Shown: positions 4,523-39,821, numbered from the stretch's first letter. The stretch is 64,000 bases of DNA from a bacterium (GCA_965218795.1 OZ244653.1:3648001-3712000), one strand, 5' to 3'. Notes: generated from the sequence alone by a model not told the origin. Program-made: numbers and translations.

Positions 4523-5326
4523 TTGAGACTTTACGGCTGGATCGGCCTGGCCATCCTGGTCCTCGCCGAGACTCTTCTGTTCGCCGGAAACCCCGTGGCG
4601 GCGGCCAACATGACGCCGGTCGCCTGGACAGGGTACATCCTGCTGGCGGACGCCGTCGTCTTCCGCCTCGCGGGCCAATCCTGGCTGATGACCCGAAGGC
4701 GGGAGTTCTGGCATCTCCTGCCCGTCTCGGTGATTTCCTGGCTCATTTACGAGTTCTACAACTACAGGATGCAGGGGTGGCATTACATCGGCCTCCCCGA
4801 CGATACCTGGGCCAGGGGGTTCGGCTACTTCTGGGCGTTTGCGACGATCTTTCCGGGATTGTTCGTGACCGCGGATCTGCTGCTGGCTCTCCGGTGGTTC
4901 CGAAGGTTCCGGGGGAGGCCGAGACCCTGGTCGGCCCAAACGCTGCGCGTATTGTTCACCTTGGGCTTCATCTGCCTGGCTGTCCCGCTGCTCTATCCTT
5001 CCGGCTATCTCTGGGCGCTCGTGTGGGTCGGGACGGTGTTTTTTCTGGGTCCCATCAATTTGATGTACGCGCCGGACAGCCTCTTCCGCGATTTCGCCGA
5101 AGGGGATTACGAGCGAATCGCCGCGCTTTTCGCAGGCGGTATCATCTGCGGTTTTCTATGGGAGCTCTGGAACTTCTGGGCGACCGCCAAGTGGTACTAC
5201 ACCGTGCCCATCCTCTCGGACGTGAAGATCTTTGAAATGCCCGTCGTCGGTTTTCTGGGCTTCCCCCCCTTCGCCCTGGAGTGCTTCGCCATGTACCAGA
5301 CGGCCCGCGCGATCCTGAGGTTCTAG
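4523..5326 (+). CDS. Conserved multi-pass membrane protein of unknown function
   Basis: 267 aa with many hydrophobic segments; internally repeated WxxYEFYN/WELWN..W.Y motifs and KIFEMPVVGFLGFPPFALECF. Confidence 0.8.
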   Translation: MRLYGWIGLAILVLAETLLFAGNPVAAANMTPVAWTGYILLADAVVFRLAGQSWLMTRRREFWHLLPVSVISWLIYEFYNYRMQGWHYIGLPDDTWARGFGYFWAFATIFPGLFVTADLLLALRWFRRFRGRPRPWSAQTLRVLFTLGFICLAVPLLYPSGYLWALVWVGTVFFLGPINLMYAPDSLFRDFAEGDYERIAALFAGGIICGFLWELWNFWATAKWYYTVPILSDVKIFEMPVVGFLGFPPFALECFAMYQTARAILRF

Positions 5327-5327
5327 G

Positions 5328-5518
5328 TGTCCTCTAAATCTTCTTTCCGTGCGATTTTACATTGCAAGGAGGTCTTTTTTATGGGACGAACGGCAACCGG
5401 GGCTGCAAGCGGTGGGAAGCGCGTTGCGGCGAGCCAGCTTGCCGAGCATCCACTGAGCGTTCTGGAGTTGGTGCACGAACTGAGCAACGTCTCGGAGGCC
5501 TGCCCCCGAGTATTGTAG
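5328..5518 (+). mobile_element. IS481-family 5' remnant (copy 1)
   Basis: AAGGAGG then ATG 5381 gives ...LAEHPLSVLELVHELSNVSEAC, resembling the IS481 transposase N-terminus (RLSVLELAxxLGNVSEAC); homologous to 42258-42430. Confidence 0.6.
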
Positions 5519-5526
5519 TCGGGAAA

Positions 5527-5696
5527 TGGATTCCTGCTACAGCCTGCCAGCTTACCCCCCCCTGAATTCCTGCCTGCGCAGGAATGACAGTCAGGGGCAG
5601 GGGGCGTGTCCCCCAGTGTTTTAGTCGAGGCAGGAATGACAGAGCAGGACCATGCAACCCCCCGTCTTGTCATTCCCGCGCAGGCGGGAATCCACA
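5527..5696. repeat. Nested REP-like palindrome cluster (GTCATTCCCGCGCAGGCGGGAATCC family)
   Basis: Copies near 5564-5590, 5620-5642 and 5669-5694 in both orientations. Confidence 0.85.
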
Positions 5697-5752
5697 CCGA
5701 ACGACCCCATCCGGCGCATCGCAACAATCAAATCATTCGTCAGACAAGAAGG

Positions 5753-6676
5753 TTAAGGGATATCATCATCAAAATCTGGTTCAAAGTCATCTGCTGGGTC
5801 CACGGTTTCTTCGATAATATTTTCACCATACTTTTCGGCAAGAAATCGTTCCCTATATAAGTAGAAAGCAGCATCACAAATCTTGTTGGTGTAATAGGCA
5901 TTAAAACTGCCCCCCACTACTGCACCTGTCACAGGAACCACTTGGGCTAATTTAGCTTTAGTAAGACGTATGCCGAGCGAAGAAGCAATTGTTTTAATGA
6001 TTGTTACAAAAGAATGCTTCTCTAAATCTTGCCACGCCTTCTTTTTAGCAACATCTTTCGCAATCCTAACGAGTTGAGCCATTGCGACTTGCTTGGCAGC
6101 GTCATTTGGGCTTGATGCTAACCCCAAAATATTCAGGGCAAACAATCTTTCCTGTTGAGATGAAATATCAAATCCATAATAGGTAGCATATTCTCCAATT
6201 GCTCGCTGATTTAGTGTAATAAGAGCTACAATATCAGGAGGGATTCCTGGTAAACCAACAGACCCCGCCCCCGCCCCTTCGGCAGTTGCAAGGGTTTTGT
6301 ATTTTGCTGACAACCAACCACATACCCTGTCGGCATCTTCTAAATCCAATGTGAATATGTCGCTCGGTGCTTCGATGTGCTCAAAACCGGCTTTTTGATA
6401 TTGTTTGTATATTGCATCGGGGCGAACTGTCCATGCAGCCAAATCATTAAGCAAACCAACCAAGCCACCTATAGCTTTTTCAATTACCCAATTAACACCT
6501 GGCGCTTCTGTTATCAGGTCTCCCGCTTTTTTAAGAGGCCAATTAATAACTTCCATAGTTTTTCCGAACCAGCCAATTTGTGGATTTTTCCACTCATGGA
6601 TGCTTGAAATTGCTAATCTTTCGTATTCACTTGGTCCATTTTTTATGAGGTGGCTCCGGTTCTGAGATGGTCCCAC
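5753..6676 (-). CDS. EcsC family protein (AT-rich, probably acquired); true start uncertain
   Basis: EGAGAGSVGLPGIPPDI, YATYYGFD, KLAQVVPVTGAVVGGSFN, YLYRERFL; visibly AT-richer than flanks; annotated GTG lies inside an IS3-like end. Confidence 0.85.
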   Translation of the reverse strand: MGPSQNRSHLIKNGPSEYERLAISSIHEWKNPQIGWFGKTMEVINWPLKKAGDLITEAPGVNWVIEKAIGGLVGLLNDLAAWTVRPDAIYKQYQKAGFEHIEAPSDIFTLDLEDADRVCGWLSAKYKTLATAEGAGAGSVGLPGIPPDIVALITLNQRAIGEYATYYGFDISSQQERLFALNILGLASSPNDAAKQVAMAQLVRIAKDVAKKKAWQDLEKHSFVTIIKTIASSLGIRLTKAKLAQVVPVTGAVVGGSFNAYYTNKICDAAFYLYRERFLAEKYGENIIEETVDPADDFEPDFDDDIP

Positions 6677-6745
6677 TTTCTTGGACAGTCTGGCGGCTGA
6701 TGTTAAGGTGTATTTCGATTGTCGATCAAGCCGCCAGAATCTCTT
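6663..6745 (-). mobile_element. IS3-family right end remnant
   Basis: Minus strand reads ...EEILAA-TGA...CTTAACATCAGCCGCCAGACTGTCCAAGAAAGTGGGACCATCTCA, like an IS3 OrfB C-terminus plus a terminal repeat ending CA. Confidence 0.6.
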
Positions 6746-6833
6746 CGAAATCGATCTCCTGCATTCCAGGCTTGTAACGCGATAGGAATATTCTTTCGAT
6801 GATTGCGGAATAGGTTCCCTTGCGTTGGTTCAC
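6726..6833 (-). pseudogene. Truncated N-terminus of putative type II restriction endonuclease partner of the MTase
   Basis: GTG 4 nt after the MTase stop gives MNQRKGTYSAIIERIFLSRYKPGMQEIDFE then IS-like EILAA*; resembles from recall the YSxIIExIF..Y..G..E..FER start of endonucleases found beside such MTases. Confidence 0.55.
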
Positions 6834-6837
6834 AACC

Positions 6838-8190
6838 TTATTCTCCAGGCCAATGGAGGAGAACGACTTCCTCTCGAAGTTCCGACCTCGTTGCCGTTGC
6901 CCTTCTGGTTCGGAATAAGTCGATACCTGTCACGTCATAACCGAGGGACTCGGCAATGTCCGCCAATAGCCGCCCGGTCCGGATCATGACTCTGAAATAC
7001 GAGGCTTGATCGCCTGCAACATATGCAAGTTGAGCGCCGGGACGAAGTATCGAGCGGAGATCCGAAAGGTGCCGCATCATCCCTCCGAAATACAGCCTTG
7101 CGACTCTTCCATAAAGCCGTTCAAAGCCGGAGGTCTTCTTCAGTTCTGTCCGCCGGTCTTCGATGGTCTCCGCAAGCTGCTGTATCTCCTTGTGATCCGC
7201 GACGATCAGATCGTCCGTGTCATCTTGATATACGTTACGGGTGTTGGACCTGACCAAATGCTGTTTGAGTTCCCGCAACTCTTGCCTGTTTCTGATAAAG
7301 CCCAAAAGAACGGATTCGAGGCGAGTCGTCCTGGTGTAATCCTTCTCGTTCGGATAAGGAGGCGAAGTGATCACTGCATCAACAGAACGTGGAGGGAGGA
7401 TCTCCCCAAGGGTTCGCGCGTCTCCCTGATGAACGGCTGCTTCGGTTCTGTTACGGCAACTCGGTTTTTTCAGGTCTTCCGCCATGCTCTCAACCCCATG
7501 CAGCCAGGAGGAGAGTACAGGGGCATCGGTCTTCGGAGGTCCAACGCCGACTTCCGGCCCGAAACGCAGGTTGCCAATTCCAGAGACGAGCGCCCGCGCC
7601 AACGCCAACCGTTCGTGATCATGAAATCGATGGTCTTTGTTCTCTTCCAAGGTTTCAAGGAGAACCAATGACTTGTGCAGAGGCAAGGGGCTTATGGAAT
7701 TTTTCAAAAGAAGTTTTGAGGTTTCTTCCGGCAGGCGTCGAAGGCTGCTCTCTGAAACGGTTTCTTCTCCCCCTGAAAATAAAGGAAGGTCCCCTCCTTC
7801 ATGGATTCCTGCGTCCTTGAGCTTTTTCGAGGCGATTCGGGAAACCTTTTTCGCGTGATGGAGCAGGCCGGCAGGGTCAATGTCCCAGTTCACTTTGACC
7901 TTGGTGGCGAAACCGGCCATTGGATTCACTTCAACCCCGAAGCTCGGGATTCCATGCTTTTTGCACTCTACGAGGGTTGTCCCGGTTCCGCAGAAAGGAT
8001 CCAGAACGCGCATTTCCCGGTTTACGCCCAATCGGCTCAGGTATTGCCTGACAAGGTGTGGAGGAAACGCAAGAACGAATCGATACCAATCGTGAGCAGC
8101 GCGATCGTCACGCTTGACTTTATTGTCTTCACGCTTGGCGACGAAAACCTGCTCCTCTGCCGTTCTCACGGTGAAGAAAACCCCATCCAT
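6838..8190 (-). CDS. DNA amino-methyltransferase (probable m4C; motif I before motif IV)
   Basis: HDWYRF, VLDPFCGTGTT (SAM binding), ITSPPYPN (catalytic SPPY). Confidence 0.92.
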   Translation of the reverse strand: MDGVFFTVRTAEEQVFVAKREDNKVKRDDRAAHDWYRFVLAFPPHLVRQYLSRLGVNREMRVLDPFCGTGTTLVECKKHGIPSFGVEVNPMAGFATKVKVNWDIDPAGLLHHAKKVSRIASKKLKDAGIHEGGDLPLFSGGEETVSESSLRRLPEETSKLLLKNSISPLPLHKSLVLLETLEENKDHRFHDHERLALARALVSGIGNLRFGPEVGVGPPKTDAPVLSSWLHGVESMAEDLKKPSCRNRTEAAVHQGDARTLGEILPPRSVDAVITSPPYPNEKDYTRTTRLESVLLGFIRNRQELRELKQHLVRSNTRNVYQDDTDDLIVADHKEIQQLAETIEDRRTELKKTSGFERLYGRVARLYFGGMMRHLSDLRSILRPGAQLAYVAGDQASYFRVMIRTGRLLADIAESLGYDVTGIDLFRTRRATATRSELREEVVLLHWPGE

Positions 8191-8239
8191 ACGGGTCGAA
8201 GAGGGTTTGTCGAAGCGGAGTCCAATGAAAATGCGGGAT

Positions 8240-8665
8240 TCAAATCCGTCCCAGCCAGACCCCCAAAAAGAAGACGATCACGAACAGGTGGATGTTGATG
8301 ATCATCCAGCGCCTGCGGTTTTGCTTCATTGATTGAAACGCCTTGCCGGGCAGCGTCAGTGCGATGGCGATGGTGAAGATGACGATGGCCAGGATGATCT
8401 TGATCCCCAATATGGAATGGTAGAGGGGGCTCGGGACAGCGGTCATCACCACGATGATCATCCAGATGCCCGTGATGATGAGAAGGGCGATGGCGATCCA
8501 GATCATCCGGCTGAACCGGACCGTGACGCTCTCCATCAACTTGCCGGACGCCTCTGAGTCGATCCGGCCCGCGGACGGCATCAGCGCCCAGAGCACAAAA
8601 GCCACCCCGCCAAAGGCGATGGCTGCCGACATCACGTGAAGAAATTTCGCGATCACAAAATCCAC
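8240..8665 (-). CDS. Small 4-TM membrane protein (CopD/DUF4149-like)
   Basis: KFLHVMSAAIAFGG, ITGIW, Y..ILGIKIIL; GAGGAG upstream of GTG. Confidence 0.75.
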   Translation of the reverse strand: MDFVIAKFLHVMSAAIAFGGVAFVLWALMPSAGRIDSEASGKLMESVTVRFSRMIWIAIALLIITGIWMIIVVMTAVPSPLYHSILGIKIILAIVIFTIAIALTLPGKAFQSMKQNRRRWMIINIHLFVIVFFLGVWLGRI

Positions 8666-8882
8666 GGTCGGTCTCCTCGTTTGAAATCATACCCTCCGCG
8701 CTCGCACTCCGCAGTTTAGCAGGCATCGCAAAAAAGGAAAACCAGGGTCCGGGCGTTTTCTATGGTGTTTGCCGAGGGGAGGGTGTATAATTCTTTGACA
8801 CTGAAGCTTCTGATATGGATCTCTGAACCGATCCGGATTTCCGGGGTCCAAATCGCGGGAAGTTCTCAAGGAGCCCGCAACC

Positions 8883-9023
8883 ATGACGAAAATTCCTGTC
8901 CGAAACGACTCTTTATGGGTGCAAGAGATTGGCCGGGTCACGCCGCGCAGGCTAATGAAATTCCGGACGCGCGGCAGGCCTTCAGGCCGGCGGACAGGGA
9001 TTTCGAGCAAGAATCCCGCCTAG
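8883..9023 (+). CDS. Possible 46-aa basic small protein
   Basis: AAGGAG before ATG 8883; TATAAT at 8786-8791; MTKIPVRNDSLWVQEIGRVTPRRLMKFRTRGRPSGRRTGISSKNPA. Confidence 0.25.
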   Translation: MTKIPVRNDSLWVQEIGRVTPRRLMKFRTRGRPSGRRTGISSKNPA

Positions 9024-9294
9024 GTACAACCCCAGAGCAGACTCGAATCGAAATCCCTGATTCTTTTGGATTGGGAGGAAGGCCGCCCGTTTTCGGACCG
9101 GCATTTTCGTCAATCCTGCAAGGCGCAGGCTTCTATTGCAGGGATTCAGGATTGAAACCGTGAAAACCATCGAAGAAAAGGCGGATGAGAGGCGCCCCCA
9201 GCCGATGCTTCCGGGAGAAGGTTTGAGCATCCCGGGGAAAGGCGACCCGGGCATGGCCCGGAGGAGCGTCTCTCAGCCGGGATAATGGATCACC

Positions 9295-9663
9295 ATGGCA
9301 AAAAGAAAATCAAGGGAAAGGGCGACCGTCAAGGTCTTCCGATACGATCCCGACGTCAACAAAGAACCCCATTTCGACACCTATGAGGTCCCCTACGACG
9401 CTCAAAACAGCGTCCTTCAGGTTTTGACGGACATCCGCGAACAGCAGGACCCCACCCTGGCCGTGCGCGAGTCCTGCTGGGTCGGCTGCTGTCTCATCTG
9501 TACCTATCGCGTCAACGGGAGATCGGAGGTCACCTGCCGGACGCGGATGGAGAAGGAGATGGTCATCGAGCCGCTGAAGAAGGAGCGGGTGGTCCGCGAC
9601 CTGATTCAGCTCGAACGAATGGACGTGGTTGACGGACGCGACGAGGCCGAAGAGGAAGAGTAG
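9295..9663 (+). CDS. 2Fe-2S protein equal to the N-terminal domain of SdhB/FrdB only
   Basis: VFRYDP, DPTLAVRESCWVGCCLIC...VNG....TC, IEPL...VVRDL; no 4Fe-4S/3Fe-4S domain. Confidence 0.9.
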   Translation: MAKRKSRERATVKVFRYDPDVNKEPHFDTYEVPYDAQNSVLQVLTDIREQQDPTLAVRESCWVGCCLICTYRVNGRSEVTCRTRMEKEMVIEPLKKERVVRDLIQLERMDVVDGRDEAEEEE

Positions 9664-9684
9664 CCCCCGGCCCGTGGGAAGGGA

Positions 9685-11478
9685 GTGATCAAGATGCGAA
9701 TCAACGGTACGAACGTGAGGGTGGTCGAGACGGACCTGCTCATCATCGGAACCGAGGCGACCGGCGGGAAGGCGGCCCTGGAGGCGGCCGAGAAGTTTCC
9801 GGAATGCCGAATCACCGTCGTCAATAAGCAGGTGATCGCGCGGAGCGCGGTCACGATCACCGCCGTGGCCACGTATAACGCTGCGGTGAATCCATACGAC
9901 GACCCCGACACTCACACAGCGGACACGATCAACGGCGGCTCGCACCTGGCGGACCAGACCCTCGCCAAACTGATGTGCGATGTCGGGGTGCAATGCGTGC
10001 ACGAGCTGGAGGCCTGGGGCTGCCGGTTCGCCCGGCAGGAGAAGAATCCGGAGTTGTACGACTGCTTCGAGTATCCGGGACATTCGAAGGCCAGAGGCGC
10101 TTACACGTTTCCCTACGGCACGACAGGCCGGAAGATGGTCCAGATCATGAAGCGGCAAATCTTCAAGCAGCCCAACATCACGGTCATGAACGACGTGTAC
10201 ATCTCCGACATGCTCATGGCCGACGGCAAGTGCGTGGGGGCGGTCGGCGTTTGTCTGGTCGAGACCCGGCCTGTCGTCATTCGGGCCAAGGCGGTCATCA
10301 TCGGCGCGGGCGGCGGGATGGAGATCTTCAAGAACAGCGATGCCGCCCGCGATGCTGTGGGCAACGGTTACGGCTGGGCCTACCGGGCGGGGAGCACCCT
10401 GGTCGACATGGAGCTCTGCCAGTTCTTCCCCACCAATGTCGTCACGCCGAAGACCATGTACGCCCAACAGCCGGTGGCCGTCATCCGTTACGCCCTCGGG
10501 GCGCGTCTTTACAACAGCAAGGGCGAGCGGTTCATGCACCGGTATGATCCCGTCCGGGGCGAATACAGCACCCGGGATCTCACCTCGCGCGCCATGTGGA
10601 TGGAAATTCTGGAAGGGCGGGGCGGGCCCAACGGCGGCGTCTACCTGTCGGTCGCCCATCTTCCCGACAACCTGATTGACGACTGGGTCGCCAAGAACAA
10701 TCCCGGGTACAATTTCGGGGGCGTGAAGCTCGAGGAGGAAGGCGTCGATATCAAGCACGATGCCTTGGAGGTCGCTCCCATGGCGCACTTCTATCTGGGC
10801 GGGATCAAGATCAACGGCCGTTGCGAGACCGACATCCCCGGTATGTACGCCGGAGGGGAGGTCGCGGGCAACGTTCACGGGGCCAACCGGCTCGGCGGCA
10901 ACGCCCTCACCGATTGCCAGGTCTTCGGCAAAATCGCCGGGGCGGAGGCGGCCGGGTACGCGTCGAAGGAAGAAGGGTACGGGGCGGTCAATGAAGACCA
11001 GGTGAAAGACCTGGTCGAGAAGATCGATGCCCTGTACGCCCGCGAAAACGGAACCCCGCCTCATGAAACGCGGAACAGAATCCGTGACGCCATGTACGAG
11101 GTCAGCCTGGTCAAGCACGGCGACTGGATCGAGAATGCCATGGGCATTCTGAAGGAAGTGAGAGAGAATGAACTTCCCGCGCCGGTCCTGGTCGGGAAGA
11201 GCAAGACCTTCAGCAAGGAGCTCATGCTGGCCCTGGAGAACGAGGATCTTTTATTGACGGCCGAACTTCACCTCAAGGGGGCCCTGATGCGGGAAGAGAC
11301 CCGGGGCGCCCAGTGCCGGCTCGATTTTCCGGATACCGACAACGAGAACTGGTGCAAGAACATCCACTACCGAAAAGACGGGGACGACGTGGAAATCTGG
11401 ACCGAAGACGTGGACCTCCACTTCTACAAGCCGGATTGGTATCTGGAAAAGGAGAAAGAGACCGCCGGCGCAGTGTAA
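9685..11478 (+). CDS. SdhA/FrdA/NadB-family flavoprotein with atypical active site
   Basis: DMELCQFFPT, RDLTSRA, HFYLGGI, GEVAGNVHGANRLGGNAL, REETRGAQCRLDFP; no covalent-FAD His. Confidence 0.92.
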   Translation: MIKMRINGTNVRVVETDLLIIGTEATGGKAALEAAEKFPECRITVVNKQVIARSAVTITAVATYNAAVNPYDDPDTHTADTINGGSHLADQTLAKLMCDVGVQCVHELEAWGCRFARQEKNPELYDCFEYPGHSKARGAYTFPYGTTGRKMVQIMKRQIFKQPNITVMNDVYISDMLMADGKCVGAVGVCLVETRPVVIRAKAVIIGAGGGMEIFKNSDAARDAVGNGYGWAYRAGSTLVDMELCQFFPTNVVTPKTMYAQQPVAVIRYALGARLYNSKGERFMHRYDPVRGEYSTRDLTSRAMWMEILEGRGGPNGGVYLSVAHLPDNLIDDWVAKNNPGYNFGGVKLEEEGVDIKHDALEVAPMAHFYLGGIKINGRCETDIPGMYAGGEVAGNVHGANRLGGNALTDCQVFGKIAGAEAAGYASKEEGYGAVNEDQVKDLVEKIDALYARENGTPPHETRNRIRDAMYEVSLVKHGDWIENAMGILKEVRENELPAPVLVGKSKTFSKELMLALENEDLLLTAELHLKGALMREETRGAQCRLDFPDTDNENWCKNIHYRKDGDDVEIWTEDVDLHFYKPDWYLEKEKETAGAV

Positions 11479-11580
11479 TCCGGGAACGACGGTATCCAGG
11501 GAGCGGACGGAGGTCTGCCCCGGAGGCGAATCGGATCCGGACGAAGCCATTCATGAATTCGGAGACAGAGGAGATAGCCC

Positions 11581-12255
11581 ATGGCGCGCGATATGCTTGA
11601 ATCCCTGGCCAATAAGATCGACCCGAAGAATGCCGCTTTGCTGATTGTGGACGTCCAGAATGACTTTGCCGCGGAAGGCGGAATGATGGACCGTGAAGGG
11701 AACGACCTGTCGATGTCCCAGGGGATCATCCCCCGGTTGCAGCAGCTCATCGACGAAGCCCATGAGGCGGACGTTCCCATCATTTTTATCCGCAACGTCT
11801 ACAACACCGACGCCAACTGGTATCTCTCCGACGTCTGGCTCGAGCAGGCCAAGCGCGTGCGCCAGGGCAGCTACGTCATCCATTCCGTTTGCGCGCCGGA
11901 TTCCTGGGCGGGGGATTTCTATGAGATCCGGCCGACCGAGAAGGACGTCATTGTCACCAAGCACCGGTTCAGCGCCTTCCAGGACACCGACCTCGACCTG
12001 ATCCTCCGCAGCCGGGGGATCCGCACGCTCATCATGACGGGCATCGCCACCAACGTCTGCGTGGAGAGCACGGCCCGGGACGGGTTTTTCCGGGATTATT
12101 ACATCGTCTTCACCTCGGACTGTACGGCCACCTATTCGAAGGAAGACCACGAGGGTACGTTGAACAACATTCGGCGGTTCTTCGGAGAAGTCGTCACGGC
12201 GGACGAGGTGGCGGGCGCCTGGAAGGGCGCGGCGGTCAAGGCGGCGACGTCCTAG
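11581..12255 (+). CDS. Cysteine hydrolase (isochorismatase/RutB/NicF family)
   Basis: Catalytic triad in VDVQND, TKHRFSAF, GIATNVCVES. Confidence 0.93.
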   Translation: MARDMLESLANKIDPKNAALLIVDVQNDFAAEGGMMDREGNDLSMSQGIIPRLQQLIDEAHEADVPIIFIRNVYNTDANWYLSDVWLEQAKRVRQGSYVIHSVCAPDSWAGDFYEIRPTEKDVIVTKHRFSAFQDTDLDLILRSRGIRTLIMTGIATNVCVESTARDGFFRDYYIVFTSDCTATYSKEDHEGTLNNIRRFFGEVVTADEVAGAWKGAAVKAATS

Positions 12256-12321
12256 CCGGTCCGGTTATCCCGAATGGGGGGGAGGGCCGCGATGAAGTCC
12301 AGCGGTCCCGACGAGAGCTCC

Positions 12322-12362
12322 GGGGGGACATTTTGAAAACCGTCCCCCCTCGAAAACTTTCG
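12322..12362. repeat. Palindromic GGGGGACATTTTGAAAA..GTCCCCC repeat family copy
   Basis: Same motif at 17851-17900, 32388-32432, 32597-32641, 34366-34560, 35284-35345, 37136-37186. Confidence 0.75.
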
Positions 12363-12530
12363 TTTCCCAATCGTGGCGGGCATAAAGGCCCGCCACGATT
12401 GGAATAAGCGCAAAACCCGGGCGGACACTTTTGATGATTGCCGCGAAGCGTCCCGAACGGCGTGAGGGAGCTATCAAGCTCGAAACTTTTTGTTTTTGAA
12501 CGGATTGACAAAAAATTCCCCTATTGGAAG

Positions 12531-12586
12531 AAGGTTCTTCGCGCGGCTCGATGACTTCGGGTCGTTGACCCCTCGCTCAGAATGAC
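12531..12586 (-). repeat. REP-like TGTCATTCTGAGCG...CGAAGAACCT element with inserted hairpin
   Basis: Reverse complement TGTCATTCTGAGCGAGGGGTCAACGACCCGAAGTCATCGAGCCGCGCGAAGAACCT; core GGCTCGATGACTTCGG recurs near 14375. Confidence 0.55.
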
Positions 12587-12859
12587 ATGGGGGCTGCATC
12601 ACGGGCCTCGACATCGTTTTTCCGCAGCCTGTCATGCGCTCCTCCCCGATTTCAGCCCTCTTCAATTTTTTTTGAACCCTTTTTGCCGTAATACCCTTCA
12701 AACATGCCGCTCCCGTATGGGACAATTGTGCGGCCGGGTGAATCCATGATCTCCGTGGTTCCGCGCGATTGATTCCGGCATGAGGAGGAATTGCGGGCGG
12801 CCTCCTGTTGACGACTTCATCGTTTGAGGCCCCGGTCTGTGTCTGGGAAGAGATATTCG

Positions 12860-14254
12860 ATGGCAAAGATTCTCATTGGAACCGGTACGGTCATCACGAT
12901 GGATGCCAAGCGGCGAATCATCAAGAACGGGGCCGTTCTCGTCGAGAATGATCGAATCGCCTGGGTGGGGAAGGCTTCAAGGATCAAACCGGAAGCGGCC
13001 GGCGGGGCCAGGAAGATCAACGCCGACGGAAAGATCATCATGCCCGGGCTGATCGATGCCCACGTCCACAACGTTCAGTCCCTCGCCCGGGGTCTCGGCG
13101 ACGACATCGATCTCATCGATTGGATCCACGAGCGGATCTATCCCTACGAAGCGGCCATGACGCCCCAGGATACCTACTGGAGCGCCATGTTGGCCTGCGT
13201 GGAAATGGTGCGCACGGGAACCACCTGCGTGGCCGACCCGGGCAGTTATTTGATGGACGACGTCGCGCGCGCCTGGGTGGATTTCGGAATGCGGGGGATG
13301 CTGTGCTGGGCCGGAGCCGATCAGTGGAGCCGGGACCGGCGGCTGGAGAAGGGGTTTCGCGGCAGGCTGAACACCGACGAGACCATGGAAGCGGAAGAAG
13401 TCCTCATCGAGCGCTGGCACGGAAAGGCCAAAGGGCGCATCCGCGCCTCGGCGGGCGTCCGCGTGGAGCCGAACTGTTCCCCCGAACTGCTGAAGCGCTG
13501 CGACGCCCTCGCGAAACAGAAAGACCTCATCGTGCAATTTCACGCCTGTGTGAATTGGGATCAGGTGAACTGGGTGAAGCGGCGATGGGGGAAACCGACC
13601 ATCGAGTGGATGGACTCCCTTGGCGTACTCAGCGACCGCTGGCTGTTGACCCACATGTCGGCTGTCACCGATCGCGACGTGGACCTGGTGAAAAGGCGCA
13701 GCGTCAGCGTCTGCCACAATCTGGGCGCCACGCTCCACGGGGCCTACGGGGCCGTCTCCGGGGGAAAGTTTCCCGAGATGATCGAGGGGGGCGTCACCGT
13801 CGTCCTGGGGTGCGACAGCACCGCGGCCAGCAACAGCCTCGACATGTTCCGGGCCATGCATCAGGTGGCCACCTGCCACAAAGAGGCCCGGATGATCCCG
13901 GACCTCATCCTTCCCGAGAAGGCCCTGGAGATGACGACCGTGGATGCCGCCAAGGCTCTGAGGTGGGAGGAGATCGGCTCGCTTGAGAAGGGCAGGAAGG
14001 CGGACCTGATCGTGGTGGACGGGACCAAGACGAACTGGACGCCGAGTTACGATTTCGCCCTTGTGCCGAACCTGGTCTACTCCGGGGAAGGACGGGACGT
14101 GGAGACCGTTCTGATCGACGGGAAGGTGGTCTACAAGGACCGGAAGTTCACCACGGTGAACGAAGCGGAGGTCAACCGGGAGGCGCAAAAAGCCGGCGAG
14201 CGCATATTGCGGCGCCTTCCCTACAGGCTCAAGCCGCGGTGGCCGCTCGTGTGA
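12860..14254 (+). CDS. Amidohydrolase superfamily protein (MtaD/AtzA/SsnA-like)
   Basis: PGLIDAHVH, RTGTT, LTHMS, LGCDS, GSLEKGRKADLIVVD, DVETVLIDGK. Confidence 0.93.
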   Translation: MAKILIGTGTVITMDAKRRIIKNGAVLVENDRIAWVGKASRIKPEAAGGARKINADGKIIMPGLIDAHVHNVQSLARGLGDDIDLIDWIHERIYPYEAAMTPQDTYWSAMLACVEMVRTGTTCVADPGSYLMDDVARAWVDFGMRGMLCWAGADQWSRDRRLEKGFRGRLNTDETMEAEEVLIERWHGKAKGRIRASAGVRVEPNCSPELLKRCDALAKQKDLIVQFHACVNWDQVNWVKRRWGKPTIEWMDSLGVLSDRWLLTHMSAVTDRDVDLVKRRSVSVCHNLGATLHGAYGAVSGGKFPEMIEGGVTVVLGCDSTAASNSLDMFRAMHQVATCHKEARMIPDLILPEKALEMTTVDAAKALRWEEIGSLEKGRKADLIVVDGTKTNWTPSYDFALVPNLVYSGEGRDVETVLIDGKVVYKDRKFTTVNEAEVNREAQKAGERILRRLPYRLKPRWPLV

Positions 14255-14400
14255 CAGCGGCGGGTCCGGACGGAAGATCCGGAGAAATGCCCCTCATTTG
14301 ACTTGATCTGCGGGGCGGTCTGCGGTCCTGCATGAACGGCAATCCAAAAAAGCCCCGCACGGTTTCCCGCGCGAGGCTCGATGACTTCGGCTCCTCCGGT

Positions 14401-15411
14401 CTAATTCGGCGCGAACAAATCCAGCAGTCTTTGCGCCTGATGCGGCTGGGCCGGCCGGACCACTGGAAGCTGAACACCCGCCTCGCGGAACTTCTCCACC
14501 CGCGCCAACACCTGCTCCGGGGTCCCCGAGGCCGTGAGATTTTCCACGTAGGATTCCGGAATCGTCTTGGCGAGCAGTTCTTTGCCCCCCGTTTCCTCCG
14601 CCTCGCGGAACTTCGGAAAGTCCTCCTTGTTGAGCCACGGGTCTCCGACGCGGATGCGCTGCCCGGCGTTGAAATCGATCTGGATCCGGTTGAACTTGCT
14701 GGCGACCTCCCAGCGAATCTGCTCGATGGCTTCGTCGCGGCTGTCTTCAACCGACGATACGATGATGCAGCCGACCCCGAAATCGCTGAAATCCCTCCCG
14801 GCGGCTTCGCAGGATTCCTTGCAGATCCGGATGGCGTTCTGGATGTACTCGGGCGAGGTGATTGCGTTGAGCATGACGCCGTCGCCGATCTCGCCGGCAA
14901 GCTTCAGTCCGGTCTTGCTCGTGGCCGCCACCCACATGGGAATGTGCTCCCGGTAGGGCTTCCACGCCAGCTCGGCCCGGTCCAGCTTGATGGTTTCCCC
15001 TTCCCAGACAATCTGCTTCTCGCCCCGGAGGAACTTGCGGATGACTTCGACGTAGTCCTTGAGGGACCCCACCGGGTCTTCGGGCTCGAGGGAGTTCCAG
15101 ACGGCATGGGTCCGTGTGCAGGCACCGGGGGCCAGGATGAAGCGACCTTCGGAGAGCTCGTCGATCGTGGCCACGGTCTGGGCGTGGATGATCGGTGTCC
15201 TCAGCCGGACGATCTGCGTGCAGCCGATGTTGATCTTTTTGGTGGCCAAGGCGAAGGCCGCCATCGCCGAGACGGAGTCGCGCATCACCTCGATGGTTTC
15301 CGAAAAAAAACCCATCTCATAGCCGCGCTCGTCGGCCTGTCGGACGAAATCCGCCATCTCGCGGACGTTCAATTTGGGCGAGTAACCCTGAGCAAAGCCG
15401 ATTCTTGTCAT
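14401..15411 (-). CDS. LLM-class (luciferase-like) flavin/F420-dependent oxidoreductase
   Basis: ALATKKINIG, ATIDELSEGRFIL, IPMWVAA...LKLAGEIGDG, GTPEQV. Confidence 0.9.
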   Translation of the reverse strand: MTRIGFAQGYSPKLNVREMADFVRQADERGYEMGFFSETIEVMRDSVSAMAAFALATKKINIGCTQIVRLRTPIIHAQTVATIDELSEGRFILAPGACTRTHAVWNSLEPEDPVGSLKDYVEVIRKFLRGEKQIVWEGETIKLDRAELAWKPYREHIPMWVAATSKTGLKLAGEIGDGVMLNAITSPEYIQNAIRICKESCEAAGRDFSDFGVGCIIVSSVEDSRDEAIEQIRWEVASKFNRIQIDFNAGQRIRVGDPWLNKEDFPKFREAEETGGKELLAKTIPESYVENLTASGTPEQVLARVEKFREAGVQLPVVRPAQPHQAQRLLDLFAPN

Positions 15412-15570
15412 TGAATTCAAATCCTTTTCCACCGGCCCCCACGGATCGGTTGATGGGACGGAACAGAGGCCCACGCCTCTACGCCGCCGGCTCCGGGGAG
15501 CACGCAACGCTCCGCCCTCGTAATTTGGCCGAAATTGACCATTAGGCTGGAAACAAAGAACCTTCTTCTA

Positions 15571-15968
15571 CCCTTTGAGAGGATCGCTGTCAAGCCGTTC
15601 TGGGGCTGAGTGGTTCCCGGTTTCCTGGGGAGGTCGGTCTGGGGTACGTATTGGAGGCAACGCGCCTTTGCGAGCTCACGGCGCCTGGAGGCGCCGCCGC
15701 CGCGCTCAAAAAGAGCATCGGATATCGACAACTCGAATGCGCGGCGAAAACGGAGCAGGCCGCGCCTGCCCCTTTGAGGAGGTCGCTGTCAAGCCGTTCG
15801 GGGGCTGAGTGACTCCCGGTTTCCTGGGGAGGTCGGTCTGGGGTGCGTTTTGGAGGCAACGCGCCTTTGCGAACCCACGGCGCCTGGAGGCGCCGCAGCC
15901 GCGCTCAAAAAGAGCATCGGATATCGACAACTCAAATGCGCGGCGAAAACGGAGCAGGCCGCGCCTGC
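15571..15968. repeat. Tandem direct duplication of a 199-bp unit
   Basis: Units start at 15571 and 15770; 12 substitutions by manual count, no indels. Confidence 0.95.
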
Positions 15969-16101
15969 CCCCCGAACGACTGAGCAGACAGGGCGGGGCT
16001 GCATTCCCGTAGAACAGGTTCTGTTTCATAAATCCGCACAAGCCGGTAAAATCACGCCTTCACACGTTGCCGAAAACAGACCTGTTCTATCGGGGGTGAA
16101 A

Positions 16102-17691
16102 ATGGCGTCCTATGACGGAATCATTGTAGGAAGCGGCCACAATGGCCTGATCTGCGGGAGCTACTTGGCGCGGGCGGGGAAGAAGGTCCTCATCGTTGAA
16201 CGGAACGACCGCGTCGGCGGCGGGCTCCTGACCGAGGAAGCCATCCTGCCCGGGTTTCATCACAACCTGCACGCCAACTTCTTCATGGGTGTGGAGCTGT
16301 CGCCTTACTACGACGACCTTGAGCTGGCGAAGCACGGGTTCGAGATCATTTTCCCGCCCGTCCAGCACGGAATCGCATTCCCCGACGGCACCGGAATGTG
16401 CATCCACCAGAACCCCGAGAAAACGGCGGCGTCCATCGCCCGGTTTTCGAAAAAAGACGCGGATAACTACCGGGAGATCCACGCGAACTTCACCCTGGGG
16501 ATGCGGAATTTTATCACGTCTTCCATGTTCACCTGTCCGCTGCCGCCTGCGGAGATGGCGGATCGCCTCAATGGTGAAATCGGAGAGGAAGTCAAAGCGT
16601 ACAACCGGATGACGATGTATGAGGCCGTCGAAAAAAATTTCGAGGAGGCCCACGTCCGCACACTGTTCAAGCTCTGGTTCCATATTCTCGCCCTGGAGAA
16701 CGACCCCGGCACGGGCTCGTTCTTCCCCCGCGTCTTTTCACGGATGGACCGGTTCTCCCTGGTGAAGGGCGGGTCCGTTCACTTCGCCGACGTTCTCGCC
16801 GAAGTCTTCCGAAAAAACGGCGGCGAGATCCGCCAGGGGGTGCACGTCTCGGCCATTACGCATCAGAACGGCAAGGTCTCGGGCGTTCGCCTCGAGGACG
16901 GGTCCGCCATCGAGGCGAATGAATTCGTCGTCAGTACGGTCGACCCGCCGCAGACGCTCCGAATGGTGGGGGACGATGGGTTCGGCCCGGAGACCTCGGA
17001 AAAGCTGCGTCACTTCAAGCCCTCGCCCCACGCCATCTGCACGCTTCACCTGGCCCTGAATGAGCCGCCGGAGTATTCGGCCGCCGCGTTCGACCCCGAC
17101 CTGAACCGGGCATTCAATATGTTCGTCGGCGTCGAGGACGAGGAAACCCTGGAAGAAAATTTCGAGGCGACGATTCACGGCCAGTTTCCGCCCTTCCCCA
17201 TGGGCAACGGGGCCTGCAACTCGCTGTTCGATCCCTCCTATGCGCCTCCCGGCAAGCACGTCGCCTTCTGGTGGCCGTTCGTCCCCTATGCAGTCGGCGA
17301 TGAGGGTCCGGATTATTGGGACAACAACCGCAAGGAGGTCACGGATCGGCTGCTGGAGGTGTGGCGCGCCTACGCGCCGAACCTGGATGGAAAGAACGTC
17401 CTGGGTACGCATTTGTTCACGCCCCTCGATACGGAACGAAGCTGTATCAACATGATCCGGGGCAGTCACCACGTTGGGGCCTACACGCTGGACCAGGTCG
17501 GCTACAACCGGCCGACGCCCGAGCTCTCCCACTACCGCACGCCGGTCGAGGGCGTATACATGGCCGGATCGGGAAACCACGTGGGAGGGTCGATCAACGG
17601 AGCCGCAGGATACAATGCGGCCGGCGTGATCGCGGACGATCTGGGCGTCAGGAAGTGGTGGACGCCGGTCCCCGAACCGGCATTGGCTTGA
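16102..17691 (+). CDS. Phytoene desaturase-family (PYROXD2-like) FAD-dependent oxidoreductase
   Basis: IVGSGHNGL...ERNDRVGG, FDPSYAPPGKH, YRTPVEGVYMAGSGNHVGGSINGAAGYNAA. Confidence 0.92.
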   Translation: MASYDGIIVGSGHNGLICGSYLARAGKKVLIVERNDRVGGGLLTEEAILPGFHHNLHANFFMGVELSPYYDDLELAKHGFEIIFPPVQHGIAFPDGTGMCIHQNPEKTAASIARFSKKDADNYREIHANFTLGMRNFITSSMFTCPLPPAEMADRLNGEIGEEVKAYNRMTMYEAVEKNFEEAHVRTLFKLWFHILALENDPGTGSFFPRVFSRMDRFSLVKGGSVHFADVLAEVFRKNGGEIRQGVHVSAITHQNGKVSGVRLEDGSAIEANEFVVSTVDPPQTLRMVGDDGFGPETSEKLRHFKPSPHAICTLHLALNEPPEYSAAAFDPDLNRAFNMFVGVEDEETLEENFEATIHGQFPPFPMGNGACNSLFDPSYAPPGKHVAFWWPFVPYAVGDEGPDYWDNNRKEVTDRLLEVWRAYAPNLDGKNVLGTHLFTPLDTERSCINMIRGSHHVGAYTLDQVGYNRPTPELSHYRTPVEGVYMAGSGNHVGGSINGAAGYNAAGVIADDLGVRKWWTPVPEPALA

Positions 17692-17850
17692 AGTCCTTGG
17701 GGACGGGCGCAACGGCAACGTGCCGCTCCGATTTCGCCTCCCTGCGGGCGGCAGAGGCGGGCGGATAGAAACATCCTCCCCTGTGGCCAGGGACGTTATT
17801 CGGTCGCAGGGGCCGGTTTCCGTATCGGCCCGTCATTCTTGTTGGACGAA

Positions 17851-17900
17851 ACGAAAGTTTTCGAGGGGGTCTGGGGGACAGTTTTCAAAATGTCCCCCAG
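17851..17900. repeat. Palindromic repeat family copy (GAAAGTTTTCGAGGGGG..GGGGACAGTTTTCAAAATGTCCCCC)
   Basis: Inverted relative to the 12322 copy. Confidence 0.75.
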
Positions 17901-17930
17901 AATCCCTTCTCAGAGAGAAAGGGATAGCCA

Positions 17931-18335
17931 ATGACCCGAACCGCCGTCAATCCCGCAGCCATCGGTGTGCCGGTGGCGCCTTATTCGCACGCCATCAAGA
18001 CCACCGGGAGCGAGATCCTCTTTCTCGCCGGTCAGGTGCCGATCGACAAAGACGGAAGCACCGTCGGTGTCGGAGATTTCGAAGCCCAGGCCCGTTGCGT
18101 CTTCGATTTGCTGACCGAAATCCTGAAAGCCGGCGGAATGGATTGGGGAAACGTGGCGAAGTTGAACGTATTCATGACGCGCCGGGAGGATCGGGAAAGG
18201 ATCACCGCCCTGCGGGAGGAATTGTTTTCCGAATGGTTCCCCAGCGGCGATTACCCCATCAGCACGCTGCTCTTCATCTCCGGTCTTTACCGTGAAGAGT
18301 TTCTGATTGAGATTGAGGCCATCGCCGTCCGCTGA
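17931..18335 (+). CDS. RidA/YjgF family protein (no catalytic Arg)
   Basis: APYSHA, LAGQVP, YPISTL, LIEIEAIA. Confidence 0.92.
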   Translation: MTRTAVNPAAIGVPVAPYSHAIKTTGSEILFLAGQVPIDKDGSTVGVGDFEAQARCVFDLLTEILKAGGMDWGNVAKLNVFMTRREDRERITALREELFSEWFPSGDYPISTLLFISGLYREEFLIEIEAIAVR

Positions 18336-18380
18336 GCGCGGACCCGGTGGGCATTTCGAAAACCCTCGGGGTGGCTTTCT

Positions 18381-19337
18381 TTAAAGCTGATACGTCGTCC
18401 CAACGCTGTTCTGGATAAACTGCTCTGGAAATTCTTCCTGGAACTTCCGCACGGCCTTCCAGCCGGTGCAGTGGGTGGGGATGATCCAGCGGGGATTGAG
18501 CTTCGTCAAAGCCTCGACCGTGGGGTCGATGATCGGTTCGAATATTCCTCCGGTCAGGTGAAATCCCCCCATGACCGCCAGCACATCTCGGACGCCCGTA
18601 ATTTCTCGGGCGTGATGGACCGTGTTGACGATCCCCGAGTGACCGCATCCACTGACGACTACGAGGCCCTTGTCCCGGACGTGGATGATCAGGGATTGGT
18701 CATCCCAGATCCAGGGGTCTGGTTCCAGTGCTCCCTCCCGTTCACAGTAGTGGATCGGAAAACCTCGCTCAAAGTCGGTCTTGCGTTCGATCTGTCCGGT
18801 CAGGGCCATGGTTCCGTCACCCAGCAATTTCGGCTCTTTCCCCGTCATGATCTGCGCGCCTGCATCGATCAGGCGTTCTTTCTGAAAAGGGGGCATGATG
18901 TGATGTTTCCCATCGGGCATGATGGCGCGTCGACTGAGATACGCATCCGGGTGGAAATGAACCGGAAGGTCTTTTTTCCCCGTTCGCTCGATCATCTCCG
19001 CCAACGCGGCCCGATGATCGACGTGGCCATGACTCAAGAAAACAGCCTCCACGGAGGATAGATCGGCTTCCAGGCGCTCCACATTGTGGAGGAGCCCTTT
19101 CACGCTCACCCCTCCATCCATGAGAACCGTGCGGGATGCGCCTCCCTCATGCGTTCGGATGAGGAGCGAGAGACCGTGCTCCGCCAGGAGCGGGGTTTTC
19201 ATGGTTCCCTGATCGTCCGACATGGGAGGACGCATGACGCATTCCTGATTGGGGAGCAGGGTATCGACGTAGTTGTCAATCAGAAACTGAATTTCGGCAT
19301 GATCGACGGGTTTCAGTTCGAGCTTCGAAGGGGACAT
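18381..19337 (-). CDS. MBL-fold hydrolase (COG1237-like)
   Basis: AEHGLS, LSHGHVDH, DDQSL, SGCGHSG, GGFHL, PTHCTG. Confidence 0.9.
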   Translation of the reverse strand: MSPSKLELKPVDHAEIQFLIDNYVDTLLPNQECVMRPPMSDDQGTMKTPLLAEHGLSLLIRTHEGGASRTVLMDGGVSVKGLLHNVERLEADLSSVEAVFLSHGHVDHRAALAEMIERTGKKDLPVHFHPDAYLSRRAIMPDGKHHIMPPFQKERLIDAGAQIMTGKEPKLLGDGTMALTGQIERKTDFERGFPIHYCEREGALEPDPWIWDDQSLIIHVRDKGLVVVSGCGHSGIVNTVHHAREITGVRDVLAVMGGFHLTGGIFEPIIDPTVEALTKLNPRWIIPTHCTGWKAVRKFQEEFPEQFIQNSVGTTYQL

Positions 19338-19500
19338 GTCTTTTCCTTCGCGGATGGAGAGCGGACCGATTGAGGAGACTGCCTCTCGCTGCGAATTCAG
19401 ATACGATTTGCCTTGGGATGGGTTGGATTTCTTGTTCTATCGTACGGCGATATGAATACCCGCATCCTCGATCAGGAATCGGTTCCGAGAGGAGAATCCC

Positions 19501-19902
19501 GTGAAAGAAATGTTAAACCCTGATTCGGTGGCAAGGCCCGTTGCCCCCTATTCCAATGTCGCCCTGACCGACGCCCGGGAGACTCTGTACATCGCAGGCC
19601 AGTTTCCGGTGGACAAGGACGGCTGCCTCATCAGGCCAGGCGATATCGAGGCTCAGGCCCAGGCCTGTTTTGACGCCATCGGCCGGATTTTGGGAGAGGT
19701 TGAGATGGCCTGGACGAACGTGGTCAAATTCAATGTGTTCATGACGCGCCGGGAGGATCGGGACGGATTTACCGCCCTGCGGCAAAGAATCTTTCCCCAA
19801 ATGTTCCCGGCCGGCGACTATCCCATCAGCACGCTGATCTTCATCAACGGCCTCTATCACGAGGATTACCTCATCGAGATCGACGCGACCGCGGTCAGGT
19901 GA
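19501..19902 (+). CDS. RidA/YjgF family protein, paralog of 17931-18335
   Basis: Shares PVAPYS, NVFMTRREDR, GDYPISTL, LIEI with the first copy. Confidence 0.92.
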   Translation: MKEMLNPDSVARPVAPYSNVALTDARETLYIAGQFPVDKDGCLIRPGDIEAQAQACFDAIGRILGEVEMAWTNVVKFNVFMTRREDRDGFTALRQRIFPQMFPAGDYPISTLIFINGLYHEDYLIEIDATAVR

Positions 19903-19925
19903 TTCGTCGAGAAGAAAGACGAAGA

Positions 19926-19948
19926 CCGCCGGCTCCGGGGGCCGGCGG
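19926..19948. terminator. GC hairpin between convergent genes
   Basis: CCGCCGGCT-CCGGG-GGCCGGCGG; A-rich 5' flank gives a T-rich tail on the minus strand. Confidence 0.5.
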
Positions 19949-19979
19949 CCTCACTGGATGGCAACGCTCGTCTTCGGGG

Positions 19980-22662: not shown

Positions 22663-22684
22663 GCCCACCTCACAATTCCTTTTT

Positions 22685-39807: not shown

Positions 39808-39821
39808 CGCGGGGGGCACGC

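Follow-up and report, generated by a model that had tools for sequence, protein, structure and literature searches.

The locus described here raises the question of what reaction an SdhA-like flavoprotein catalyzes when one half of its dicarboxylate site is gone. It lies in a stretch of 64,000 nucleotides from a bacterial genome (GCA_965218795.1 OZ244653.1:3648001-3712000; this whole stretch is called the window, and positions are counted from its first letter), where three intact same-strand open reading frames (ORFs) fill positions 9295-12255: a small iron-sulfur (Fe-S) subunit, the flavoprotein and a cysteine hydrolase (Table 1). The SdhA/FrdA superfamily is the textbook case of one flavin site retuned for different reactions, as in aspartate oxidase, urocanate reductase and adenosine 5'-phosphosulfate (APS) reductase. 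The branch studied here joins three departures: a glutamate in the dinucleotide glycine motif, the loss of a dicarboxylate half-site and a one-cluster partner. A preliminary description, made from the sequence, had read the genes as a soluble two-subunit SdhAB-like enzyme with a rewired active site, coupled to the hydrolase. With slightly better than even confidence, we propose that the enzyme is a soluble alpha,beta C=C reductase or C-C dehydrogenase for a nitrogen-containing monocarboxylate, formed by the Fe-S subunit and the flavoprotein as a heterodimer.

The flavoprotein has lost one half of the dicarboxylate site

The flavoprotein matched the Pfam families FAD_binding_2 (E 1.6e-52) and Succ_DH_flav_C (E 2.5e-19), and fell under every curated NCBIfam cut-off. 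Its best NCBIfam model was TfrA (NF004900, 420.6 bits vs a cut-off of 718). The generic SdhA/FrdA model TIGR01812 gave 350.4 bits (cut-off 567.3), with all SdhA/FrdA models below cut-off, and the scores for NadB (TIGR00551, 258.3 bits, cut-off 452.75), AprA (135 bits, cut-off 557) and the flavocytochrome c/UrdA-type reductases (TIGR01813, 117.2 bits, cut-off 285.45) were lower still.

Active-site residues were placed in two registers, one from HMMER against the solved E. coli SdhA (1nek_A) and M. smegmatis Sdh, the other from a MAFFT alignment of 91 rows that included E. coli SdhA, FrdA and NadB from the K-12 record. In E. coli SdhA numbering, G14 and G19 of the glycine motif are kept (G22 and G27) and G16 is replaced by E24 (9754-9756), so that the motif reads GTEATG. 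The histidine that binds flavin adenine dinucleotide (FAD) covalently, H45, is A55 (9847-9849), and H242 is F248 (10426-10428). T254 and E255 are V264 and A265 (10474-10479) in the MAFFT register and pair with A260 and Q261 in the HMMER register; the loop is longer in the window flavoprotein, and the Thr-Glu pair is lost in both registers. Retained are R258 (R268), R286 (R297, 10573-10575), H354 (H368, 10786-10788) and R399 (R402, 10888-10890). The motifs given in the preliminary description (GTEATG, RSAVT, QFFPT, AVIRY, RD, HFYLGG and GANRLGGN) are all present exactly as quoted. Its statement that the dicarboxylate-binding histidine and threonine are replaced was confirmed by the register check against SdhA, FrdA and NadB, where F248 and V264 stand in their place, and so was the retention of the proton-donor arginine, R297 being aligned with R286 by both methods.

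The same pattern extends to the relatives. Over the diagnostic columns, the window flavoprotein reads GEGAFVARRHR, and E. coli NadB and the TfrA rows P0017 and P0029 read GGGGHTERRHR. Among relatives of 39-91% identity, E24, the catalytic arginine and the H368/R402 pair are invariant, position 248 holds F or Y, and the covalent-FAD histidine is missing from every row. Of the 91 tree rows, 83 retain equivalents of R286, H354 and R399; no such constraint is seen at the three specificity positions, which vary freely.

The structure prediction that had been suggested as a check gave an AlphaFold2 model (13 sequences; mean predicted local distance difference test score, pLDDT, 71.8; predicted template-modelling score, pTM, 0.80) with the full SdhA/FrdA fold and active-site loops at low confidence. 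Foldseek template-modelling (TM) scores of the model were 0.81-0.83 to human SDHA, E. coli FrdA and M. smegmatis Sdh1. The head of complex II (SdhA/SdhB and FrdA/FrdB, 1nek and 1kf6; Sdh1, 7d6v) thus shares with the window pair the two-domain flavoprotein fold with its C-terminal domain (TM ~0.8), the catalytic arginine, the histidine and arginine of one carboxylate site, and the 2Fe-2S domain and cysteine pattern of the partner. In contrast to complex II, the window flavoprotein (~27% identity) has no covalent-FAD histidine, carries GxExxG and has His242, Thr254 and Glu255 replaced, and the pair lacks the 4Fe-4S/3Fe-4S domain and anchor genes.

These comparisons bear on the most conservative assignment, a soluble fumarate reductase or succinate dehydrogenase working in the reductive or oxidative tricarboxylic acid cycle. 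It would agree with the best family models (TfrA and SdhA/FrdA), with the full fold, and with the retained catalytic arginine and single carboxylate site. Nevertheless, the scores lie far under cut-off, H242, T254 and E255 are replaced, unlike in the TfrA rows, the genome has a canonical SdhAB at another locus, and the gene context is that of N-compound catabolism; we regard this assignment as very improbable. The absence of a covalent FAD link also argues against succinate oxidation, which requires this bond. Non-covalent FAD would suit either a reduction or the oxidation of couples whose potential is lower, such as those of the dihydroorotate/orotate type or of ureido-substituted acids.

The partner is a single 2Fe-2S domain

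Pfam assigned Fer2_3 alone to the small subunit (residues 11-105, E 3.3e-24). In alignments with E. coli FrdB and SdhB, it corresponds to their N-terminal [2Fe-2S] domain only and stops just past the RDL motif, after which FrdB and SdhB run on into the 4Fe-4S/3Fe-4S domain. The cysteine ligands are kept in the pattern C-x4-C-x2-C-x11-C: C61 (9475-9477), C66 (9490-9492), C69 (9499-9501) and C81 (9535-9537). These four cysteines are invariant over 16 such mini Fe-S subunits. The preliminary description was therefore right that the partner has only the 2Fe-2S domain. It had also stated that there is no membrane anchor gene, and indeed no known Sdh/Frd membrane-anchor family was matched among the neighbour proteins scanned around 9295-12255. 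By eye, no signal peptide is evident at the N-terminus of either subunit.

The Fe-S subunit and the flavoprotein would thus form a cytoplasmic heterodimer with non-covalently bound flavin, in which the one-cluster subunit is predicted to dock at the position of the SdhB N-domain. Of the clusters in SdhAB, the 2Fe-2S cluster lies nearest the flavin. Because the partner is cut down to this flavin-proximal domain, its cluster should be exposed to a soluble carrier. Single electrons would then pass between the flavin and a ferredoxin, a flavodoxin or an NAD(P)H module, and not to a membrane quinone. At one related locus, a GltD/PreT-like NAD(P)H module directly follows the Fe-S gene, and at another two flavodoxins are encoded close by, which suggests that the electron partner of the pair varies.

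The last part of the window subunit (9606-9663) is an acidic tail of ~12 D/E-rich residues. It is present in four Nitrospinota-type orthologues and in the metagenome locus L116, and not in ten more distant aligned mini subunits. This tail could serve in docking a basic electron partner.

The methanogen enzyme TfrAB, the best-scoring named family, is likewise soluble, and its TfrA rows branch beside the radiation described below. It differs in that TfrA rows hold H/T/E and GxGxxG, and in that TfrB carries further clusters and CCG domains. NadB likewise is soluble, binds FAD non-covalently and has the same fold; it holds H/T/E and has no Fe-S partner. Taken by its sequence, the pair is a true member of the SdhA superfamily that falls outside SdhA/FrdA, TfrA, NadB and UrdA by the defining tests of each.

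The pair belongs to a large radiation

The glutamate at the second glycine was found in 45 of 268 homologues from two protein searches; by a simple pattern test, the canonical combination of GxG and QFHPT was present in only 98 of them. Metagenomes were scanned with patterns derived from an alignment of GxExxG N-termini, which returned 80 loci biased to this type. In a separate search of the representative-genome collection, only one close locus (L001, 86%) and one Asgard archaeon locus at 40% (L002) stood out among the 80 loci kept. Where the metagenome locus had a complete flavoprotein gene and at least 350 nt of downstream sequence (45 loci), a same-strand mini Fer2_3 ORF, called at 103-163 aa, was directly adjacent in 42, the exceptions being L118, L124 and L154. 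L002 and each of the four orthologous genomes show this adjacency of a mini Fe-S gene and the flavoprotein gene as well. The gene pairing behind the soluble two-subunit organization proposed earlier is therefore family-wide, as judged from a synteny drawn mainly from metagenome contigs that were chosen by the GxExxG motif.

True orthologues (70-90% identity) are confined to four other genomes of the same family among 51 genomes of the phylum, the rest reaching at most 38%, and close protein relatives of the flavoprotein carry Nitrospinota names. A FastTree phylogeny was built from 91 hand-chosen rows; its metagenome rows were selected by motif, so that the clustering of labels is partly built in and the GxE counts are biased accordingly. 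In this tree, the window protein groups with its orthologues in a clade of 6 rows with starred support. L119 and P0008, a Clostridia-named protein of 50% identity, are placed as its sister group, again with starred support. The next branch is a starred clade of 7 rows, of which L149, L120, L158 and L002 have scanned loci. Together these make 15 rows (support 100) that nest in a 62-row, mostly GxE clade, inside a broad radiation of variant-site enzymes branching beside methanogen TfrA rows and archaeal-type canonical SdhA. Judged from this placement, the flavoprotein belongs to a large uncharacterised radiation and is not a lone oddity.

The earlier proposal of a candidate undescribed enzyme system has to be widened to this radiation. 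It stands in so far as we found no description of an enzyme composed of such a flavoprotein and a 2Fe-2S-only subunit, nor of GxExxG in this setting, in a literature search whose coverage left out most subscription journals. As far as the literature covered shows, the subunit make-up and the flavin motif of the pair are unstudied.

Two alternatives are addressed by this distribution. One is that the glutamate abolishes FAD binding and the protein is a flavin-free or inactive relic with a structural or regulatory role. It draws on the fact that none of five solved structures aligned to this segment has a glutamate at the second glycine. It is hardly credible, as GxExxG fills large clades, E24 is invariant, the catalytic arginine and carboxylate ligands are kept, purifying selection is strong and the Fe-S partner is conserved. 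The other alternative is a different flavin chemistry, either an N5 adduct of the APS or 3'-phosphoadenosine 5'-phosphosulfate (PAPS) reductase type, or the use of a carboxylate-free substrate such as a ring carbonyl of uracil or dihydrouracil. AprA and the PAPS reductase alpha subunit are detectable relatives, and the specificity positions are highly varied over the radiation. The AprA score is far below its cut-off, however, the R297/H368/R402 trio is maintained over most of the tree, and no sulfur-metabolism genes occur among the neighbours scanned, which makes this chemistry quite unlikely.

The window genome (5.17 Mb, one contig) encodes nine full-length PF00890 paralogues, three of which adjoin a mini Fe-S gene. 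One of the nine is a canonical SdhA (QFHPT, His45) with a 244-aa SdhB. A second GxExxG flavoprotein (615 aa) lies just past the end of the window (G000 C1 3712671-3714894; L198:4672-6895, minus strand). It has its own 122-aa mini Fe-S gene and adjoins a creatinase/prolidase-type M24 gene and a helix-turn-helix-cupin regulator, and a xanthine dehydrogenase (XDH)-like molybdoenzyme is encoded ~5.7 kb away. In the tree, it falls into a large 'GEGGLPYS' clade whose loci often have M24, M20 and EutA-like genes, families of which ectoine/hydroxyectoine utilisation sets are composed. At about 4726965-4731928 (G000 C1; L199:4965-9929), two tandem GxG-type SdhA-like genes with QFVPS and QFLPS flank a 142-aa mini Fe-S ORF (found by phmmer); they are followed directly by a creatininase gene, with Amidohydro_3 and gamma-glutamyltranspeptidase genes nearby.

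Gene contexts point to the catabolism of nitrogen compounds

The hydrolase matched the Pfam isochorismatase family (PF00857, 155.2 bits, E 2.4e-45). Its best family and closest solved relative are those of RutB (TIGR03614, 147.6 bits, cut-off 377.95; E. coli RutB 8bkd, E 3.5e-33). D24, K127 and C160 are in register with 8bkd and correspond to the Asp-Lys-Cys catalytic triad of RutB. The first RidA protein of the cluster matched RutC weakly (51 bits, cut-off 169.1), so that both Rut scores are far under cut-off, and no RutA equivalent reached its NCBIfam cut-off among the scanned neighbours (best 34.9 bits vs 498.3).

The full set of genes, i.e. Fe-S subunit, flavoprotein, hydrolase, TRZ/ATZ amidohydrolase, luciferase-like (LLM) oxidoreductase, CrtO-like flavoprotein and two RidA proteins, recurs in genome G003, and up to and including the CrtO-like gene in G001. 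In G002 and L116, the Fe-S, flavoprotein and hydrolase genes are followed by a major facilitator superfamily transporter gene. Genome G006, with a 70% orthologue and no hydrolase, has instead an SsuA-like binding protein, a C45 hydrolase, an agmatinase and a dihydroorotase/hydantoinase-type cyclic amidohydrolase (pyrC_multi, 302.5 bits, cut-off 279). For a 78% relative (L118), the contig of 9 kb includes an M24 gene of the creatinase/prolidase type but lacks an Fe-S gene. The claimed coupling to the cysteine hydrolase thus holds in part: among the loci of at least 70% identity, seven extend downstream and five of these have the hydrolase gene, and the coupling is lineage-specific, restricted to close relatives.

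The TRZ/ATZ amidohydrolase co-occurs with the pair over longer evolutionary distances than the hydrolase does. Relatives of 50% and 51% identity to the window enzyme adjoin the distant pairs of L119 (50%) and L190 (38% flavoprotein identity), respectively. The gene order in L119 is orotate phosphoribosyltransferase (222.9 bits, cut-off 150.25), flavoprotein, Fe-S subunit, cupin, amidohydrolase, an unassigned gene, a PyrD-type gene (238 bits, slightly short of its cut-off of 270) and a GntR regulator.

In the clade of 40-43% identity (the metagenome contigs L149, L120 and L158 and the Asgard archaeon contig L002), D-glutamate-cyclase-like and EutA/arylmalonate-decarboxylase-like genes adjoin the flavoprotein and Fe-S genes. 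L158 and L149 encode a HutH-type lyase (688 bits in L149, cut-off 524); histidine ammonia-lyase forms urocanate. L149 further has UbiD and is the only locus in which a histidine-racemase-like gene scored, and DUF1989 and XDH-like molybdoenzyme genes are present in L149 and L120. No urocanase-family match was listed among the scanned neighbours of these four loci. The cluster is a candidate for an alternative histidine/urocanate route.

Across the 30 loci with scanned neighbours, the recurrent families were Amdase/Asp-Glu-racemase-like proteins (11 loci), peptidase M20 (6), aldehyde:ferredoxin oxidoreductase (6), creatinase/prolidase M24 (5), ATC hydrolase (5) and XDH-like enzymes (3).

Proposed substrate and reaction

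Since the site for the second carboxylate is replaced and the carboxylate clamp and acid/base arginine are kept, the substrate would be of the type R-CH=CH-COO-/R-CH2-CH2-COO-. The carboxylate is expected to lie on H368/R402, with the alpha carbon facing R297 and the beta carbon, which carries the N-group, facing N5 of the flavin. F248 and the longer hydrophobic loop would occupy the space of the second carboxylate of fumarate. The group R may be a ureido group, an amide, or an imidazole- or pyrimidine-type ring; the sister contexts with HutH or with orotate phosphoribosyltransferase and PyrD-like genes fit a heterocyclic or N-substituted monocarboxylate. Our best guess for the reaction is the interconversion of 3-ureidopropionate and 3-ureidoacrylate, or of a dihydroorotate/orotate-like acid.

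We read the pair in this organism as part of a nitrogen-releasing catabolic cluster, together with the TRZ/ATZ deaminase, the RutB-like amidohydrolase and the two RidA proteins. In such a chain, the deaminase would act on an amino-heterocycle, the flavoprotein would carry out the redox step on the ring or side chain, and the RutB-like hydrolase and RidA would then dismantle the unsaturated product by cleavage of the amide or ureide and removal of the enamine or imine.

UrdA and the flavocytochrome c fumarate reductases (6t85 and 1qjd) offer a precedent for this monocarboxylate rewiring. According to the structure paper on UrdA (PMC7921117), the histidine of the fumarate C1-carboxylate is a tyrosine in UrdA, and the exchange Y373H restored some fumarate activity; the relay glutamate is not conserved, both arginines and the carboxylate contacts are conserved, and the proton-donor arginine is 3.6 A from the alpha carbon. 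UrdA and the window flavoprotein are alike in having an aromatic residue for the C1-carboxylate histidine, no relay glutamate and both arginines, a likeness in mechanism and not in descent. UrdA belongs to another branch; 6t85 and 1qjd match only a short segment (residues 361-425, E 8e-18; about 358-428 at its widest). In contrast to UrdA, the window flavoprotein lacks an FMN-binding (flavin mononucleotide) or cytochrome domain, has a separate 2Fe-2S subunit for its electrons and is predicted to be cytoplasmic. An analogous pairing in that other branch is reported for Shewanella in two preprints, where ammonia-lyases are coupled to periplasmic flavocytochrome-type reductases.

The reaction most difficult to separate from a C=C reduction is a NadB-like C-N oxidation. 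Here an amine-bearing monocarboxylate, such as a beta-amino or N-substituted acid or a cyclic amino-acid derivative, would be oxidized to an imine or enamine, which RidA would hydrolyse, with the electrons leaving through the 2Fe-2S subunit. NadB belongs to the same superfamily, and paralogues of the window genome adjoin creatininase and M24 genes. On the other hand, NadB holds H, T and E at the positions lost in the window flavoprotein, and the alpha-carboxylate of the amino acid would bind at the very site that is missing here. The NadB score is also far below its cut-off, and RidA is equally explained by a RutC-like role after a RutB-like hydrolase. We therefore consider C-N oxidation unlikely, though the least so of the alternatives.

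Several observations weigh against the proposed N-monocarboxylate C=C reductase or dehydrogenase. The conserved cluster contains two RidA genes, and the amino-acid-type neighbours over the radiation (M20, M24 and racemases) fit C-N oxidation equally well. The hydrolase was not found at the loci of the 70%, 78% and 50% relatives, and no electron-carrier gene is evident in the window operon. The second glycine of GxGxxG is normally indispensable, and a glutamate in its place should disturb pyrophosphate binding, so that flavin binding is a prediction. In the structural model, pLDDT is below 50 at residues 51-66, 210-226, 243-247, 255-262 and 397-407, which are the loops contacting flavin and substrate. 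Moreover, we found no biochemical datum for any member of the branch, again with most subscription journals outside coverage. The earlier claim that one carboxylate site is kept and that the enzyme acts on a non-dicarboxylate enoate is thus borne out as to the site, by the replaced H/T/E, the retained Arg/His/Arg and the UrdA precedent; as to the enoate, it agrees with the reading we favour, C-N oxidation being the less likely alternative.

As a tentative extension to the whole of this large and widespread family, these 'mini complex II' enzymes of bacteria and archaea might reduce C=C bonds, or form them by dehydrogenation, in heterocyclic and N-substituted monocarboxylates (urocanate, orotate-like, ureidoacrylate-like or ectoine-like acids), with a carrier for the electrons. 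They might thereby serve the breakdown of histidine, pyrimidines and compatible solutes by routes not yet described, and the invariant glutamate might hold, or tune, the flavin in a novel manner. The family contexts point toward catabolism of histidine and of pyrimidine-, creatinine- or ectoine-type compounds. Such catabolism matters for nitrogen recycling, e.g. in the sponge-associated communities where this sequence occurs. A single assigned substrate would open the annotation of many genes now called 'FAD-binding protein', and could reveal urocanase-independent or dihydropyrimidine dehydrogenase-independent pathways.

Selection, transcription and habitat

The three genes are under purifying selection: when each was compared with its counterparts in four orthologous genomes, the ratio of nonsynonymous to synonymous substitution rates (dN/dS) was 0.03-0.19 in the computable pairs, with dS near saturation. 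Near-identical DNA is present in runs of nine studies, some labelled as sponge metagenome. Transcription is faintly hinted at by short single contigs, for which DNA carry-over is possible. In two metatranscriptome libraries, including a sponge library, such contigs match the flavoprotein gene (10275-10527) and the hydrolase gene (12016-12185), and two runs tentatively classed as RNA have matches at 9950-10331 and other positions. Contigs of RNA libraries are missing over most of the stretch, which is uninformative on expression. At 12410, one contig of a tentative RNA run stops in an A-rich loose end, and similar ends occur at 9013, 13281 and 18574; they could be transcript 3' ends or library artefacts.

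Organization of the locus and its surroundings

Table 1 Genes of the conserved cluster and the adjacent divergent gene
Feature	Position	Strand	Basis and conservation
Small Fe-S subunit, 122 aa	9295..9663	+	Pfam Fer2_3 only; alignments to FrdB and SdhB
SdhA/TfrA-like flavoprotein, 597 aa	9685..11478	+	Pfam, NCBIfam, HMMER, MAFFT, structure model
RutB-like isochorismatase-family cysteine hydrolase, 224 aa	11581..12255	+	Pfam, TIGR03614, RutB 8bkd
TRZ/ATZ (COG0402-type) amidohydrolase or deaminase	12824..14254	+	Conserved in G003 and G001
Luciferase-like (LLM) oxidoreductase	14401..15507	-	Best models F420/Mer-type, all under cut-off; conserved in G003 and G001
CrtO/phytoene-desaturase-family FAD oxidoreductase	15850..17691	+	Conserved in G003 and G001
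RidA/RutC-like imine/enamine deaminase	17931..18335	+	Conserved in G003
Second RidA-family protein	19501..19902	+	Conserved in G003
CopD/DUF2269-like membrane protein, 141 aa, divergently transcribed	8240..8665	-	31.6 bits, just under cut-off

The flavoprotein ORF begins 21 nt after the Fe-S ORF, and the hydrolase ORF 102 nt after the flavoprotein ORF. Two of the ORFs in Table 1 are probably too long at the 5' end: the TRZ/ATZ gene probably starts at the methionine of MAKIL, ~12 codons into the ORF, and the CrtO-family gene at residue 85 (about 16102). An antisense ORF at 9310-11118 (602 aa) was rejected as a gene, having no family match and lying opposite the domains of the sense frame.

The CopD/DUF2269-like protein is the only membrane protein encoded next to the pair, and its position is kept in G003, G001 and G002. 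It was rejected as an Sdh anchor, since it matches no anchor family and the Fe-S partner lacks the anchor-contacting domain.

An Rfam scan of 5000-23000 at E <= 0.1 gave no match, and a scan of 8600-13000 for sigma-70 promoters and terminators gave nothing exceeding shuffled controls. The ~570 nt between the hydrolase and amidohydrolase genes (12256-12823) have no convincing ORF, Rfam match or sigma-70-type match. At the edge of the conserved cluster are a gene of the metallo-beta-lactamase fold (18381-19337) and a 571-aa ORF (19899-21614), which has no Pfam or NCBIfam match and includes the final 4 nt of the second RidA gene.

On the other side, a low-GC stretch (5327-8240; GC 0.495 in 6001-8000) with an EcsC-family gene and a DNA methyltransferase gene separates the gene of a 267-aa membrane protein from the CopD-like gene. 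These two genes adjoin in G003, and the stretch therefore looks like an insertion. Farther away in the window, a multihaem cytochrome of 848 aa, in which motifs of the MtrC/MtrF-like and cytochrome c3/c7 types were matched, is encoded at 39686-42232, and a squalene-hopene cyclase gene lies at 43821-45809.

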